Shown one piece after another: positions 17,286 to 42,485 of a stretch of 64,000 nt of DNA. Location: NCBI GenBank assembly GCA_944331875.1, contig CALVJA010000012.1:638-64637 (forward strand), read 5' to 3'. The DNA comes from an uncultured Clostridia bacterium. Its GTDB lineage: Bacteria; Bacillota; Clostridia; Christensenellales; DTU072. Numbering within the stretch: position 1 is the first letter of the stretch; each line of letters opens with the position of its first letter. The notes beneath the pieces were generated by a model. That model made no database searches. It was given only the letters and a program-made list of their open reading frames with translations, and was not told the DNA's origin. The position numbers were made by a program, and so were the translations under genes.

Positions 17286-19355
17286 TCAGTGCTTTTTGCC
17301 GGTAATACGTTCGTATTCCGCGCGCGGCACTTCCTGGTAGTGGCTCAGCTGCATCGTGTAATTGCCCCTGCCCTGAGTCGCCGAACGCAGCGTCGTCGCG
17401 TAACCGAACATCTCCGAAAGCGGCACGTCCGCGTCCACGACCTTTATGCCCTTTCTGTCCTCCATGCTCTTGATCGAGCCGCGGCGCGAGCTTATCGTAC
17501 CGAGAACGTCGCCGAGGTAATCGTCGGGGCAGGTGATCTCCACCGCCATGACGGGTTCGAGTATCGTGGCGCCCGCCTTTTGCGCCGCTTCCTTCAGCGC
17601 CATACTGGCGGCGATCTTGAACGCCATTTCCGAGGAGTCCACCTCGTGCGAGGAGCCGTCCACCAGCCTTACGCGGAAATCGACGAGCTCGTAGCCCGCG
17701 ACAACGCCCGCTTTCGCGGCGTCGCGGATGCCTTCTTCGACGGGTTTGATGAACTCTTTCGGTACCGATCCGCCCACGGTCTCGTCCACGAATTCTATGC
17801 CGGAACCGGGTTCCAGAGGCTCGATGTCGATGACGACGTGGCCGTACTGACCTTTACCGCCCGACTGGCGTATGAATTTGCCCTCGGCGTGCGCGGGATT
17901 TTTGATGGTCTCGCGGTATGCGACCTGCGGTTTGCCGACGTTGGCTTCCACCTTGAACTCCCTCAAAAGTCTGTCCACGATTATCTCGAGGTGCAATTCT
18001 CCCATTCCCGCGATGATGGTCTGTCCCGTTTCGCGGTCGGTATAGGTCTTGAAGCTGGGGTCCTCGTCGGAAAGTTTGGCTAAAGCGAGGCTCATCTTCT
18101 CCTGACCGAGTTTGGTCTTCGGTTCTATCGCTACTCGTATGACGGGGTCCGGAAACTCCATCTTTTCCAAAACGACGGGTTTGTTGAGGTCGCAGAGCGT
18201 GTCGCCGGTGGACACTTCCTTCAGCCCCACCAAAGCGATGATGTCGCCCGCGTACGCTTCCTCTATCTCCTTTCTGGAGTTTGCGTGCATACGCAGTATC
18301 CTGCCGATACGCTCGCGCTTTTCCTTTACCGAATTATAAACGGTCATGCCCGTTTTGATGATGCCGGAGTATATGCGGTAGAACGCGAGTTTTCCGACGA
18401 ACGGATCGACCATGATCTTGAACACCAGGCCCGAAAGCGGTTCGGAATCGGAGGGGTGCCTCAGCTCTTCCCTGCCGTGGTATTCCCCTTTTATCGCCGG
18501 AATATCCGTGGGCGCGGGCAGAATGTCGACTATAGCGTCCAGAAGTATCTGCACGCCCTTGTTGCGGTACGCGCTGCCGCAGATGACGGGGACGACCTTC
18601 ATCTGTACCGTCGCCTTCCTCAAAACCGTCAAAAGCTCTTCCGGGGTTATCTCTTTGCCGTCTAAATATTTATTGAGCAGTGCGTCGTCCTGTTCCGCGA
18701 CGGATTCCACCAGCTTTTGGCGGTATTCCGCGACGACCCCGGCATATTCTGCGGGGATATCCACGACGTCGTATTCCTTTCCGAGGTCGTCGTCGTGATA
18801 CATAAGCGCATGGTCGTGGATAAGGTCTATGATGCCGCGGAAAGAGTCCTCTGCGCCGATGGGCAAAGTAATTGGCACCGCATTCGCGCCGAGACGCTCG
18901 TGCATCATTTTGATGACGCGGTAAAAATCGGCGCCGTTTATATCCATTTTATTTACGAACGCGATCCTCGGAACGCCGTATCTGTCTGCCTGGCGCCATA
19001 CCGTTTCGGACTGCGGCTCGACGCCGCCTTTGGCGCAGAACACCGCCACGGCGCCGTCCAGGACTCTGAGGCTCCTCTCGACTTCGACGGCGAAATCGAT
19101 GTGCCCGGGGGTGTCGATAAGGTTTATGCAGCAATCGCGCCAATGCGTGGTGGTCGCGGCGGAGGTGATGGTTATGCCTCTCTCCTGCTCCTGCACCATC
19201 CAGTCCATCGTCGCGTCGCCCTCATGCACTTCGCCGAGTTTGTGCGTTTTTCCCGTATAGAAAAGTATACGCTCCGATGTCGTGGTCTTGCCGGCGTCGA
19301 TGTGCGCCATGATTCCGATATTTCTGATTTTTTCCAGCGGATACTCTCTTGGCAT
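17286..19355 (-). CDS. fusA: Elongation factor G
   Basis: 689 aa. [18 protein letters not shown] and NKMD motifs. Canonical position in the str operon. Confidence 0.98.
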
Positions 19356-19416
19356 TTACTTACTCCTGAATGATTTCAAACGTGTTGTTTCGATATAGAC
19401 CGAAAACAAACGGGCT

Positions 19417-19473
19417 AGAAAATGCCCAAAGGCAGGGTTTAGTTCGACCTAAATGACTGCTTTTGGGCGTTTA
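19417..19473 (+). repeat. Long-stem hairpin element, copy 1 (inside the rpsG-fusA spacer)
   Basis: 16-bp stem AAATGCCCAAAGGCAG/CTGCTTTTGGGCGTTT around the apical module GGTTTAGTTCGACCTAAATGA. Sibling copy at 39769-39826. Confidence 0.8.
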
Positions 19474-19572
19474 GACAAGCGAACGGGAAACTATATCTTC
19501 CCGGGCGCGACGTTTATCTCCGGCGCAAAACGGTACGCGCGTACCGTCCGGCTTACGGTATTTTTCGTCAGA

Positions 19573-20043
19573 TCACCAGCGGAAGTGCGCGAACGCTTTG
19601 TTCGCTTCCGCCATGCGGTGCGTGTCTTCCTTCTTTTTGATGGAGCCGCCCGTGTTGTTGTAAGCGTCCAAGATCTCTCCCGCAAGTCTTTCCGCCATCG
19701 TCCTCTCGCCGCGCTTTCTGGCGTAAAGCACCAGCCAGCGGATACCCAGGGTCTGTCTGCGGACGGGACGGATCTCGAGCGGTACCTGATAGTTCGCTCC
19801 GCCTACGCGGCGCGCTTTGACTTCGAGTACCGGCATGACGTTCTCGAGCGCTTTGAAAAACACTTCGTCGGGCGCGTTGCCCGTCTTTTTGTTGATGATG
19901 TCGAACGCGCTGTAGACTATTTTCTGAGCCGTGCCGAGCTTGCCGTCGTACATGACCTGGTTGGTAAGTTTCGTGATGACCTCGGAATTATATACGGGAT
20001 CCGGAAGTACGTTTCTTTTTGGAACTCCGCTTCTTCTAGGCAT
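19573..20043 (-). CDS. rpsG: 30S ribosomal protein S7
   Basis: 156 aa. [19 protein letters not shown]-terminus. str operon context. Confidence 0.97.
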
Positions 20044-20999: not shown

Positions 21000-21632
21000 G
21001 CGCCTCTTTTCCGCCGTATCGCACGAAATTACTTAAAGCCTTTAATATCACCCCGTTTTGGAGACCAAAACGGGGCGCGGACGGCGCATAGTCCCGCTAT
21101 AGCGCCGCCCGCGTTTCTTGCGATACGACGCAAAATAGTCTGCAAATCGGTGCCGAGTATGCTTTCCAATGCGCCAAAATACACAGTGAACTAAACACTC
21201 TCAACGTAGCGAAAAAATACAAAGTGAACTATACACGCTCTACTTGGCAACAAAATACATAGTGGACTGCATTCTTCTTTCATGCAAAACACTAATGCAA
21301 GCAAACTGCTGTTCATGGCTAAAGCAAATCGGTGCCGAGTATGCTTTCCAATGCGCCAAAATACACAGTGAACTATACACGCTCTACTTGGCGACAAAAT
21401 ACACGCCTACAGCCGTAGATTTTCGGGGGATTTTTCGTGAACAAAATGGCGGCATACGATGTATGCCGATATTTTTTCGCGAAAAAGGACCGAAAAGATA
21501 CGGGGACTAAAGTATATAGTTGATATATGACTCTTCAATCTAACGACCGCAACAAAATTCGAAACTTTTTGCTTGAACGGGGGAGTGTATATCTTTTTGC
21601 TTGTGCGAGGATATAAAAGTGCGGTTCGAATT

Positions 21633-21768
21633 TTATTTCACAAATTGAAACTTTGCCCGCGAAGTTTCAATTTATTTCACAACGCGCGCCCATGGGGCGC
21701 GCGTTATTTCACAATTCCGCTTGCGGAATTATATCACCGTTTTTGCGGCGACAACGTCGCCGCAAAAA
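21633..21768 (+). repeat. TTATTTCACAA-punctuated hairpin array B
   Basis: Motif at 21633, 21672 and 21704, plus the TTATATCAC variant at 21729. Hairpins: ATTGAAACTT..AAGTTTCAAT; CGCGCGCCC-ATG-GGGCGCGCG; TTCCG-CTTG-CGGAA; GTTTTTGCGGCGA-CAAC-GTCGCCGCAAAAAC. Confidence 0.8.
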
Positions 21769-39333: not shown

Positions 39334-39362
39334 ATTATACCAAATACCCGCGCCAAAGTAAA
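39334..39362 (-). promoter_or_regulatory. Sigma-A-type (extended -10) promoter of the pyr operon
   Basis: Minus strand TTTACT-17 nt-(TGg)TATAAT. The leader is ~25 nt to the AAGAGG SD. Confidence 0.6.
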
Positions 39363-39394: not shown

Positions 39395-39700
39395 TTTTTA
39401 GCCTTTCGGCTAAAAGTGATATGCACGTTCCGTGCGTGATATTTTCAGCCCGAGGGCTGAAAGTTACCTTAACTTCTCCCAACGGGAGAAATATCACTCT
39501 GCGAAGCAGAATATCACTTGACGAAGTCAAATATCACTTTGCGAAGCAAAATATAACTTGAGTGTTTAAGTGATATTTTTTAGCCTATCGGCTAAAAAGT
39601 GATATGCACGTTCCGTGCGTGATATTTTGCCCTAAAGGGTCAAAGTTATATTTTCAGCCTTGCGGCTGAAAGCTTTTTCAGCAGTCCGGCTGAATAGAAG
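39395..39700. repeat. ATATCAC/GTGATAT-punctuated mini-hairpin array with a 4 x 20-bp iteron-like core
   Basis: GTGATAT at 39416, 39436, 39570, 39599 and 39619. ATATCAC at 39491, 39511 and 39531. Degenerate ATATAAC at 39551 and GTTATAT at 39645. 12 or more hairpins lie between the motifs. See findings. Confidence 0.85.
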
Positions 39701-39768
39701 CAAGCGAGACAAGGCTCGCACCCTTTCTAGCGTGCTCTGACCGGATAGAAACGAGCTAGACGAGGCTC

Positions 39769-39826
39769 GAAAACGCCGCGGGACAGGAGTTTAGTAAAAC
39801 CTAAATGACTGTTCCGCGGCGTTTTC
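39769..39826 (+). repeat. Long-stem hairpin element, copy 2 (possible terminator after the 878-aa protein gene)
   Basis: 18-bp stem GAAAACGCCGCGGGACAG/CTGTTCCGCGGCGTTTTC around GAGTTTAGTAAAACCTAAATGA. Same architecture as 19417-19473. Confidence 0.8.
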
Positions 39827-39848
39827 AGTAAACGAAGTATAGCGAAGT

Positions 39849-42485
39849 TTATATCCGGTCAGAGCCGGTGAGACGATCATAGAGGGTTTGATCGTTGGGA
39901 ATTTGGTCGCCCGGTTCGATGAGGGGCGGACCGGAGGTAAAGTCGGCGCAGATGAGGAAGCAGTCGTGGTTGATGGTGAGTCCGTCGACGAGCATACTGG
40001 CAATGTTTGCGATGGCGCGTATGGTATCGCTGTCGGCGATGGCGAGGTCGGCTATGCGCATACCGGTCTCGGGAGCCACGGTGACGCCGGTAAGGTCGTA
40101 GGAGCACATGAGCCCGAGGCCGAAGCCCGCTATCGAAACGTACTCCGCGCCACCGTAATTATAGATCAACCCGTCGAAAGCGCCTGCGGCAAACATTTCG
40201 TTTACGGCGGTTGCGAAAGGTCCGTCCAGAAGAGAGCTCGCCGCCTGCAGCGCGGGTACCATGGTATAGACGGTCGTGGTCAGAATGTTGTAGACTTCGT
40301 CCGTCGTTTTCCAGTTATACACGTCCATTATCCCTTCTATCGTGATATTGGGGATTATGTTACGATTCATGTTGTTGGCGTCTATGACGCGCGGGACGAT
40401 CTGTACCGATGCGCCGTAACTCATCTTGAAGACGTTGTTGCGCAGCGTGACGTGGCAGTTTTTGGCGTCCTCTCTGTAATATCCGAGCTCTATGCCGGAG
40501 GTGTAGTTATCGCCCAGAATGCAGCCTTCTATCGTCAGGTCGCCGACGGAGTGCGCCTGCAGTCCGCGGGTAGTATTATAGATCTGGCAGTAGCGGTATG
40601 TGACGGAACTGTTCCTTACATCGCGCGCACGAATAAGATGGGAGGTCTTTCCCGCGTCGTCCAGAGTCAACGCGCCGCGCATGACGATGTCCTCGAATAC
40701 GAAACCGTCCGTATAGACCTCGCCCGCATACTCCTGCCCCTCGGCAAAGTGCGTGCCGCCGTTGATCTCGAAAACGAATTCGGTGGACTGCGACTCGGTC
40801 GGTCTGTGCGCCGAAAAGTCGAAGAGGAATCCGTTTCCGTATATGCTGGAGCGCATGGTTTTCGCTCTGACGTCGTTGGTGGCGTATGCGTCGCCCTGCA
40901 TAACGATGTCGTGACTGCCGAGGTCTATCGCGCTCAGCACGTCCTCGAAATCGTAGGTGTTGAACGCAGGAAGTTTATGGAAGCGGAAAGTAAAGCTTCT
41001 TCTGACGTCTACGGGACGGTTGTTTACCATCAGCGTCGCGGTCAGTGTCACGTTCTTCCCGAGCGCCCGGACGGGATCGACGGTAATCAGAGCGGCTTGA
41101 GAGCCTTCCTCTTTCGCCACGCTCACGGGCTGCACGGCGCCCTCTTCGAGCCCCTCCGTGGACACGCTCCACCTGACGTCGAAGGAATTCGAGTCGCCCA
41201 CTATCCCCAGGCGGAAAGTGTTCGTGGGTTCGTTGTTTTCGTTAAGCCACTCCGTCCCCCATATCCTCGACATTTGGATGCCGCGGGCGGCGTCGGCGGT
41301 GGTAAGTTCCAGCGTGAACGATACCGGTCGTTCGCGCACGGTGACGATCTTGGATACCGTATGTCCGTTGTATTCGGCAGTCAGAGTGACCACCCCGGCT
41401 TTTACCGGTTTTAACTCGAAACCTTTACCGCCCGATATCGTTTCGACAATTTCCACGCCGAGAACGTCGGTATCGTCCGAAACCAGCGTCAGAGATTCGT
41501 CCTCTATCGCTTCTCCGGAGATCAAGTATCCGAACGTCGCATAATAGGGACCGTTCTGCGTATATATCGTGGTGAGTCCGTCGGTAAATCCCCATTCGTC
41601 CTCGGCGCAGTAGATAACGCCTATCTCCACGGTGGTGAGCTCTCCGCCGGAGACGATCTCCACGGCATAGCGGTCGTCGGACAGCCTTTCGATGCCTGAT
41701 ACGGATACGTCATCGCCCGTGACGACGTTCATTCTGATCAGCTCGTCTATATCCCGAATACCGTCCGCCACGTAGATCTCGGTCTTCTTGACCAAAGCCT
41801 CGGAAGTGTCCACATAGACGGTCCTGCGATGATGGTTGCCTTCGCGGTCGGTCGCCGCCAGCGTGACCGTGGTAATGCCGCGGGATACAGGCGTCACTGT
41901 GCCGTTCACGGAAACGGAAACTATACCGGAATTTCCGCTTATCCACTCCACGTTGGATTCGTGGAGCGCCGCCATCGGGTTTATGTCGTAATAAAACTGC
42001 TCCGTGGTCTTCAGGGAGTAGACGGCGCTTTCCGCTATCTCCGCGCCCTCGCCGTTATAGATGTCGATGGAAGCTATTTCGGTCGTGGTCACGTAAAAAT
42101 GCAGGGTGAATACAACGTTGATGTTCTTTGACGCACGGATGATGAGATCGGTCGCGCCCATCTCGAGAGCGCGTATACGGTAACGGTTCGTCCCTTCTAT
42201 CGGCACGAGCTCCACGGAACCGGAACCCGCCCCCTCGTCGCGTTCCTGCAGAATGCTTTTATCGGGCGTCATGGACGGATAGACTTCGATAATCAGAAAG
42301 TCTTCGGTATTTATATCGACCGTTATCAGTTCGCCCGCGGCGATCTCCTCGTTACGGGAATTTTTAACGACGATGCTCTCCGGATTGACCGGAGTCGTCA
42401 GCAAAATGATATTCGACGTCACGCTGAGCGCCAGTACAGCCACTATCGGTATTATACAGATCACGGCTATCAGAAATTTTTTCAT
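39849..42485 (-). CDS. Signal-anchored surface protein with Big_2 (Ig-like) repeats and a C-terminal beta-helix-like region, paralog 1
   Basis: 878 aa. N-terminus MKKFLIAVICIIPIVAVLALSVTS. Big_2-like block NVEWISGNSGIVSVSVNGTVTPVSRGITTVTLAAT. The C-terminal half has PbH1-like strands (IYGNGFLFDF, LTIEGCILGDN, VTLRNNVFKM). Confidence 0.75.
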   Translation of the reverse strand: MKKFLIAVICIIPIVAVLALSVTSNIILLTTPVNPESIVVKNSRNEEIAAGELITVDINTEDFLIIEVYPSMTPDKSILQERDEGAGSGSVELVPIEGTNRYRIRALEMGATDLIIRASKNINVVFTLHFYVTTTEIASIDIYNGEGAEIAESAVYSLKTTEQFYYDINPMAALHESNVEWISGNSGIVSVSVNGTVTPVSRGITTVTLAATDREGNHHRRTVYVDTSEALVKKTEIYVADGIRDIDELIRMNVVTGDDVSVSGIERLSDDRYAVEIVSGGELTTVEIGVIYCAEDEWGFTDGLTTIYTQNGPYYATFGYLISGEAIEDESLTLVSDDTDVLGVEIVETISGGKGFELKPVKAGVVTLTAEYNGHTVSKIVTVRERPVSFTLELTTADAARGIQMSRIWGTEWLNENNEPTNTFRLGIVGDSNSFDVRWSVSTEGLEEGAVQPVSVAKEEGSQAALITVDPVRALGKNVTLTATLMVNNRPVDVRRSFTFRFHKLPAFNTYDFEDVLSAIDLGSHDIVMQGDAYATNDVRAKTMRSSIYGNGFLFDFSAHRPTESQSTEFVFEINGGTHFAEGQEYAGEVYTDGFVFEDIVMRGALTLDDAGKTSHLIRARDVRNSSVTYRYCQIYNTTRGLQAHSVGDLTIEGCILGDNYTSGIELGYYREDAKNCHVTLRNNVFKMSYGASVQIVPRVIDANNMNRNIIPNITIEGIMDVYNWKTTDEVYNILTTTVYTMVPALQAASSLLDGPFATAVNEMFAAGAFDGLIYNYGGAEYVSIAGFGLGLMCSYDLTGVTVAPETGMRIADLAIADSDTIRAIANIASMLVDGLTINHDCFLICADFTSGPPLIEPGDQIPNDQTLYDRLTGSDRI

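Follow-up and report, generated by a model that had tools for sequence, protein, structure and literature searches.

Hairpins in a Clostridia contig as probable centres of an ERIC-like mobile repeat that occurs in several phyla

Introduction

The stretch of DNA analysed here, 64,000 nucleotides of a contig from an uncultured Clostridia bacterium and called the window below, contains two hairpins, at 19417-19473 and 39769-39826, whose tips are nearly alike and whose stems are not. What are these hairpins, and why do their irregular pairs favour one strand? The initial annotation took them for a two-copy family with a conserved apical module, covarying stems and strand-asymmetric G-T wobbles. 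We find that the family, the covariation and the strand asymmetry stand, whereas the annotation missed that the hairpins belong to a longer mobile element, that this element occurs in several phyla and that it shows kinship with ERIC. We consider it likely that the hairpins of the window are the centres of one intact (39734-39865) and one decayed (19392-19497) copy of a non-autonomous, ERIC-like mobile repeat.

Results

Two hairpins and the elements around them

Both hairpins are real at the coordinates given above. Their apical module had been described with a spacer of six nucleotides, which is wrong: GTTTAG-N6-CCTAAATGA has no literal match, and the true form is GTTTAG-N5-CCTAAATGA, which a pattern scan of the window finds exactly at 19437-19456 and 39789-39808 (two exact matches, against about one match expected by chance at up to three mismatches). 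The stems differ between the copies and are complementary within each (GCCCAAAGG/CTTTTGGGC versus GCCGCGGG/CCGCGG), and the three pairs that depart from Watson-Crick pairing, T19423:G19469, G19431:T19461 and G39782:T39813, are indeed all G-T on the + strand. We note that a G-T pair located five base pairs below the module is conserved in this subfamily and did not arise independently in each copy.

A family of two copies describes the window only. Genome-wide, a covariance model (R1), built from 47 diverse copies with no ERIC included, finds 8 copies in the source genome (1.96 Mb, 38 contigs), several of them at contig ends or in tandem. The window itself holds two copies and one 5' remnant only, with the following features.

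39734-39865, + strand (the folding strand): copy 2, an intact full element, a long hairpin of about 132 nt; R1 match at 39745-39853 (98.5 bits, E 3e-19)
39734-39752, + strand: 5' arm of the outer stem P1 of copy 2 (GCTCTGACCGGATAGAAAC), pairing with 39847-39865
39753-39769, + strand: 5' junction of copy 2, GAGCTAGACGAGGCTCG, with the conserved ..RAGGC.. of alignment A1
39770-39786, + strand: 5' arm of the stem P2 of copy 2 (AAAACGCCGCGGGACAG), pairing with 39809-39825, G39782.T39813 included; the P2 columns covary
39787-39808, + strand: apical module of copy 2, GA-GTTTAG-TAAAAC-CTAAAT-GA, with tandem G.A/A.G, G.T, a 5-bp stem P3 and a loop
39809-39825, + strand: 3' arm of P2 of copy 2 (CTGTTCCGCGGCGTTTT), from pairing and covariation
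39826-39846, + strand: 3' junction of copy 2, CAGTAAACGAAGTATAGCGAA, with the conserved ..AAACGMAG.. of alignment A1; the same block as GCAAACGCAGCA in E. coli ERIC
39847-39865, + strand: 3' arm of P1 of copy 2, overlapping the end of an 878-aa beta-helix ORF (39849-42485, - strand)
39692-39718, + strand: remnant, the solitary 5' end of another copy (GAATAGAAGCAAGCGAGACAAGGCTCG), seen as direct repeat D5; weak R1 match at 39694-39729
19392-19497, + strand: copy 1, a decayed element between rpsG (19573-20043, - strand) and fusA (17286-19355, - strand), with P1 GATATAG/CTATATC
19395-19500, + strand: R1 match of copy 1 (46.7 bits, E 6e-8); its 5' GA is reduced to G, the A being lost
19419-19472, + strand: P2, apical module and P2' hairpin of copy 1, with T19423.G19469 and G19431.T19461

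The outer inverted repeat of copy 2 (I5) is 19 nt long and 95% complementary, and its 5' arm includes a family-wide ATAGAA/TTATAT segment with a G.A mismatch. RNAfold gives copy 2 -78.9 kcal/mol on the + strand and -68.5 kcal/mol on the - strand. The 3' arm of its P1 provides the final five codons and the stop codon of the beta-helix ORF, and the copy is situated upstream of two features, a Gut-1 repeat array and a pyrB promoter-like site at 39334-39362. Copy 1 sits in the rpsG-fusA spacer in antisense orientation. The remnant is identical to the 5' ends of copies on contigs C4 and C31. We note that three contigs of genome G000 (C23, C28 and C31) stop within a copy, and that C23 and C31 overlap at their ends inside one copy, so that the element breaks this assembly.

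Beside copy 2, the window carries a dense mosaic of mini-hairpins joined by GTGATAT/ATATCAC at 39395-39700 (and also at 21630-21739). Gut-1 (RF01706) matches there at 39486-39559 on the - strand with 66 bits, above the gathering score, and more weakly at 39544-39630 on the + strand and 21630-21739 on the - strand; arrays of the Gut-1 type are also found next to further copies on contig C23.

Anatomy and covariation

When 170-nt stretches from every phylum were folded, all groups sampled gave a common fold, in which the hairpin is the centre of a long-hairpin element of 105-135 nt. From 5' to 3' the order is the outer stem P1, ..AAGGC.., P2, CAG-GA-[GUUUAG-loop-CUAAAU]-GA-CUG and ..AAACGMAG... 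P1 is variable in sequence and carries a conserved G.A mismatch, and P2, of 14-19 bp, is hypervariable and differs in sequence between lineages; above it stand CAG/CUG, a 2x2 loop of GA opposite GA, a G.U pair, UUUAG/CUAAA and a loop of the form U-N(2-4)-C. In alignment A1, G21 and C22 of the 5' junction are invariant and C17, A19 and G20 at least 90% conserved. The apical module is invariant among copies selected by exact pattern, a manner of sampling that skews the collection toward one apical variant; the 23-nt module and the two junction blocks do not differ from phylum to phylum.

That the stems covary around a conserved apical module, as had been proposed from two copies, is borne out by the family. 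Pairing holds for 91.5% of the cells in A1, for 72% once the alignment is shuffled and for no more than 50% when the partner is slid, double-change cells number 203 against 59, and double compensatory changes occur in 12 of the 14 variable pairs. P3 has compensatory variants of its own, GTTTAC/GTAAAT (a change at the top of P3, found among the congeners) and GTGTAC/GTACAT, with GCTTAC/GTAAGT and GCATAG/CTATGT in E. coli.

Several variants depart from this plan. The element of CASDQU01, a small-genome uncultured Firmicutes assembly, is termed CASDQU-type here, and six of its copies (L017, L078, L091, L096, L104 and L105) are of a 273-nt variant with an extra block of about 100 nt, containing three small hairpins, placed after the 3' arm of P2 and before the 3' junction. 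In Muribaculaceae (L024, L041, L063 and others) a different repeat, GTCATTTGGATTTTTAATC...AAAATACATTGACAAGACT, has only the apical module and a second tandem GA in common with the element, and R1 matches it in the hairpin part only; the apical module may thus be common to otherwise unrelated elements. A chimeric copy at G000:C23:62-136, which is without P1 and 5' junction, joins a 5' arm of GCCGCGGGG type to a 3' arm of CTCAGGCG type with the stem broken; it probably arose when copies recombined.

Distribution

Genomes that carry the element, as counted with R1, have from 5 to more than 50 copies and include some Clostridia, Bacteroidaceae, Spirochaetales, Desulfovibrionaceae, a gammaproteobacterial MAG and Legionella. 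CASDQU01 has 34, the Gammaproteobacteria MAG 26, a Bacteroidaceae MAG 21, a Spirochaetales MAG 14, Legionella quateirensis 8 and a Desulfovibrionaceae MAG 5. Congeners range from 0 to at least 23 copies, and among Legionella 12 of 66 species are carriers, with up to at least 56 copies. Tandem arrays of the element occur, and they are free of ORFs.

Exact-pattern scans of public genomes and metagenomes returned more than 200 loci; about 35 chance matches are estimated for the 18 fixed bases in the public sequence scanned. Marinifaba and a Flavobacteriaceae MAG, which match the pattern and have no further copies, are such chance cases, and nearly all of the remaining loci have complementary arms and the same flanks. 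Plasmid and phage collections gave chance matches only.

Mobility and target duplications

The element is very probably a mobile repeat (MITE). It is short, non-coding and multi-copy, with terminal inverted repeats and target-site duplications, and in sister species the spacer is short and element-free: the rpsG-fusA spacer, which is 217 bp long here with copy 1, measures 61 bp in both G001 and G018. These closest species are about 90% identical in fusA and rpsG, with spacers too diverged for exact insertion boundaries, and no target duplication can be demonstrated for the window's own two copies.

Duplications are clear in two other settings. In Legionella, where the element is 122-126 bp long with the ends CAGGACTT...AAGTCCTG, a perfect 5-bp direct repeat of varied, AT-rich sequence flanks 26 of 44 copies and a four-out-of-five match flanks 14 more; a shifted control gives no perfect 5-bp match. 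The CASDQU-type element, 171 nt long or 273 nt with a nested insert, stands in 9 of 19 copies between exact direct repeats of 13-21 nt, each of which takes in an entire terminator-like hairpin, a length of 12 being reached by none of 306 mismatched flank pairs. Relatives are too distant for an empty-site comparison; the length of the duplication tracks the size of the hairpin, which suggests that the cuts are placed by structure. The ends of the element differ widely between lineages (CAGGACTTACG.., TCAGACTGTTC.., GCTCTGACCGG..), and together with the differing duplications this indicates that different machineries may move a common core. A common core carried by different termini is a real possibility.

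No protein family recurs near the element in ORFs within 2.5 kb of 218 loci, none being present at more than 10 loci. As to an autonomous partner, no pair 1-3 kb apart was seen among the end matches listed for Legionella G134. Those matches comprise about 90 pairs of element ends with a few odd spacings (62 bp and 412 bp), namely a 62-bp end-to-end mini form at C5:1087-1149 and a form of about 410 bp at C7:8145-8557.

We also note that the element follows the rpsG stop codon directly on other Clostridia contigs (L080, L201 and L225), in antisense like copy 1 and with different P2 stems, so that the rpsG-fusA spacer looks like a recurrent landing site. In the congeners G013, G010 and G007 (L265, L267 and L268) this spacer contains unrelated repeat-like inserts, such as gaaattagcctg...ccggcttttttcatgtagcgg and caaagctcggtcggg..aaccgacc, and a hairpin aacggtatg..cataccgtt just 3' of rpsG is kept in all congeners.

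Placement and the folding strand

Copies are intergenic in 226 of 239 cases. The neighbouring gene on the 3' side is encoded opposite to the element 135 times against 49 (median distance 84 nt), and the element therefore usually abuts the 3' end of a gene; roughly half of the copies lack an upstream gene of their own orientation. Orientation follows replication. In G110, a complete Legionella genome of 3.38 Mb, 33 of 41 copies are oriented with the GTTTAG strand as lagging-strand sequence, with 18 of 20 on the - strand in the first half of the chromosome and 15 of 21 on the + strand in the second. GC skew at the sampled loci (+0.057 in the first half, -0.045 in the second) confirms an origin near position 0. 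The bias is not explained by gene orientation, since 33 of 81 flanking genes are co-oriented with replication and the four classes of element and neighbour orientation (12, 11, 10 and 7) show no clear preference. The GC skew of the GTTTAG strand is likewise negative at 101 of 139 MAG loci and in 7 of the 8 copies of the source genome, including both copies in the window. This means that the leading-strand template carries the strand that folds well and that the exposed template of the lagging strand carries the one that folds poorly.

The asymmetry of the wobbles, which had seemed no more than suggestive in two copies, is strong across the family. Inside P2, read on the GTTTAG strand, G-T and T-G pairs total 209 against 29 for A-C and C-A, and G.A and A.G total 152 against 11 for C.T and T.C. 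Nor does the orientation turn random over further copies when these are collapsed into 42 stem lineages to reduce shared ancestry: 22 lineages favour G-T and 5 favour A-C (p = 0.0015), while 20 favour G.A and 4 favour C.T (p about 0.0015). The GTTTAG strand is the more stable one in 187 of 192 copies with RNA parameters (means of -36.8 and -26.2 kcal/mol) and in 182 of 191 with DNA parameters (-18.1 and -14.6 kcal/mol). We considered a replication-strand mutation bias as the cause of the G-T excess and dropped it, because the usual bias would favour A-C on the lagging-strand sequence; the asymmetry is thus not a by-product of a bias that points the opposite way. Selection for folding of one strand is very likely. 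Whether the selected form is RNA or single-stranded DNA is about an even question: the ERIC precedent and the larger RNA energy gap favour RNA, and the replication bias favours DNA.

Relation to ERIC

The layout of the element, which we took to be that of the centre of ERIC, prompted a comparison. ERIC is a 127-bp MITE with terminal inverted repeats and a TA target-site duplication whose transcripts form long stem-loops, and in Yersinia it alters mRNA stability in a manner that depends on its orientation (PMC2229807, PMC3184786, PMC10969869). The duplicated TA stands at its termini (PMC2229807, PMC3184786), and reviews give its host range as Enterobacteriaceae and Vibrionaceae (PMC10969869).

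The ERIC core is found in all 5426 complete E. coli genomes. Its centre reads CCCCAG-GA-GCTTAC-ATAA-GTAAGT-GA-CTGGGG, with the flanks ..GCAGGAAGGCG.. and ..GCAAACGCAGCA.., and an E. coli copy that has ..TTGCAGGAAGGCG.. before this centre and ..GCAAACGCAGCA.. after it shows the same order of blocks as the element, with GA/GA and G.U. R1 aligns end to end with ERIC at 26.1 bits (24.8-29.1 bits for ERIC-type copies), and a 5.1-Mb E. coli chromosome has only three R1 matches at E <= 10, all of ERIC type, with genome-wide E values of 0.04-0.3. One of the three is a variant with P3 GCATAG/CTATGT. In pairwise alignment with ERIC, a Clostridial copy reaches a z score of 4.2 and a Bacteroidaceae copy 5.2, but copy 2 of the window only 1.8. 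We note that an ERIC-type variant in E. coli NZ_CP025916.1 (L332, about 1976384-1976490) has the apex CCAG-GA-GCATAG-CTAA-CTATGT-GA-CTGG, so that P3 shows compensatory change even inside E. coli.

On the basis of the common layout, three blocks of sequence and these weak scores, a common origin with the ERIC core is probable. The core would then be the same module as the ERIC/IRU centre, in an ERIC-like superfamily that reaches well beyond the enterics. We file the element as an ERIC-like MITE and not as ERIC proper, given its different target duplication and host range.

Discussion

If the hairpins are the centres of an ERIC-like mobile repeat, the whole element, as a single strand in GTTTAG orientation, would fold into one long hairpin. 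A putative transposase acting in trans would move it by cut- or copy-and-paste with staggered cuts at the target, and the conserved internal loop and apical module would be read in single-stranded form, either in a co-transcribed RNA, as for ERIC in Yersinia, or in single-stranded DNA. The two window copies would be passengers, copy 1 putting an antisense-oriented hairpin into the rpsG-fusA transcript. The orientation bias could arise from fork-coupled, oriented insertion, or from the loss of copies in the other orientation, in which the exposed lagging-strand template is the strand that folds well and hairpin extrusion on it would be counter-selected. Such counter-selection is familiar from long palindromes and SbcCD.

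Could the copies instead be independent structured ncRNA genes, each an sRNA, a protein-sponge RNA or a self-cleaving ribozyme expressed from the GTTTAG strand, with the internal loop and the tandem-GA apical module as the functional site? Such genes would account for the strong covariation, for G.U and G.A on one strand only, for loop and junction sequences conserved across phyla, for the tandem arrays and for an RNA energy gap of 10.6 kcal/mol between the strands, but not for target-site duplications or for a range of 0 to more than 50 copies among congeners. Orientation moreover tracks replication and not transcription, a co-oriented upstream gene is missing at roughly half of the copies, no conserved promoter or terminator accompanies them and no Rfam family matches; within Rfam 15, no family reaches its gathering threshold on the element, and only generic hairpin (miRNA-model) noise appears. 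We regard this reading as unlikely.

Less likely still is a single-stranded DNA element of REP/REPIN or IS200/IS605 type, for whose movement a Y1 (HUH) transposase or a RAYT would recognise the GTTTAG strand in its folded form. PF01797 (Y1_Tnp) is absent from G000 and from the Legionella genomes G093 and G123, with 50 and 56 copies, and is present in many genomes without the element; the clean 5-bp duplications are at odds with HUH single-stranded transposition, which leaves no target duplication. The folding asymmetry, the replication-linked orientation and the long hairpin form, as in REPINs, do fit such an element, though the folding strand lies on the leading-strand template, opposite to the strand preference of IS608. 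That the hairpins are ordinary gene-end hairpins (bidirectional intrinsic terminators), convergent, immobile and of no common origin, is scarcely credible despite their location just past stop codons and the A-rich 5' and T-rich 3' stem ends that give many Clostridial copies a hairpin and U-run on the mRNA strand, because the 23-nt apical module and both junction blocks recur unchanged across phyla, duplications flank the element, Proteobacterial and Bacteroidaceae copies have no U-runs, and a terminator scan calls none on the main hairpin of either window copy but only a minor 5-pair stem at 19411-19428 in copy 1.

Other candidates were set aside by eye. An integron attC site does not suit conserved boxes that are apical and internal, arrays without ORFs and copies in core operons. 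A small ORF or an SD-hairpin-AUG arrangement would keep the frame, which is not conserved; a kink-turn would have a 3-nt bulge, which is missing; the motifs of hammerhead, pistol and twister cores are absent; and the spread across phyla does not fit an uptake sequence. A CsrA GGA site was dropped because Bacteroidota are not known to have CsrA.

Starting from the ERIC-like repeat, a wider picture can be drawn, which we offer tentatively and hold to be doubtful as a whole. The ERIC core may be an ancient module, structured as a single strand and found in many phyla, which is borne by MITEs that differ in their termini, read by a conserved factor and tied in its orientation to the replication fork; in one Clostridial lineage the element would insert by structure, with cuts on both sides of a terminator hairpin so that the whole hairpin is duplicated. 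We know of no bacterial transposon with a mode of insertion that duplicates a whole terminator hairpin.

ERIC repeats have served in strain typing for decades. Their manner of moving and the reason for the conservation of their core are old questions, for which the distribution, the one-strand folding and the replication bias described here are new handles. Mobile repeats with the same core are present in Clostridia, Bacteroidota, Spirochaetota, Desulfovibrionaceae and cultured Legionella. Since one host can be cultured, has many copies and shows clean 5-bp duplications, experiments can be aimed at the transposase and at whatever reads the core. For annotation, such elements account for many of the conserved 'orphan' hairpins and of the contig breaks seen in gut MAGs, and they can supply stop codons, as well as hairpins within operons such as rpsG-fusA.

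Among known systems, the Gut-1 RNA motif (RF01706) is, like the element, an orphan hairpin repeat of gut metagenomes; it is a separate element made of mini-hairpins joined by GTGATAT, has no R1 match and favours the opposite strand. REPINs and REP-BIMEs are likewise multi-copy intergenic hairpin repeats with maintained structure that form mosaics with small hairpin repeats (here Gut-1-type arrays), but the element differs from those with RAYT in having target duplications, no GTAG/CGTC tag and no linkage to Y1/RAYT. Correia/NEMIS, RUP, QMITE2 and other bacterial MITEs resemble it in size, terminal inverted repeats, target duplication, 3'-UTR location and overlap with stop codons, and MITEs of these types are co-transcribed with their neighbours (PMC2229807, PMC5896051); they have no sequence relation to it, and its hypervariable, covarying stems with invariant loops, cross-phylum distribution and replication-biased orientation set it apart. 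Members of the IS1202 family have ends 5'-TGT..ACA-3' and duplications of 5-6, 16-17 or 27-28 bp (10.1101/2022.12.17.520857). These lengths are reminiscent of those seen here, but derivation from that family was rejected, as the element ends in CAG..CTG and its long duplications, 13-23 bp, vary with hairpin size.

ERIC is the closest counterpart. Both are long-hairpin MITEs (about 105-135 bp here, 127 bp for ERIC) with a core CAG-GA-[6-bp stem opening with G.U]-loop-GA-CUG and the junction blocks ..AAGGC.. and ..AAACGCAGCA.., both are intergenic with an orientation preference, beside or overlapping stop codons (copy 2 of the window overlaps one), and in both one strand folds well (-56.8 against -40.0 kcal/mol for ERIC). 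Longer variants with internal insertions occur here, and ERIC has such forms too. The differences lie in P3, which has changed in a compensatory way and is GUUUAG/CUAAAU here and GCUUAC/GUAAGU in ERIC between the CAGGAG...TGACTG common to both; in the ends of the element; in a target duplication of 5 bp in Legionella and of a 13-23 bp hairpin in one Clostridial lineage instead of TA; and in a host range of Clostridia, Bacteroidota, Spirochaetota, Desulfovibrionaceae and Legionella. The kind of element, an ERIC-type repeat, is already known; what is new here is its presence in several phyla and its clear preference for folding on one strand.
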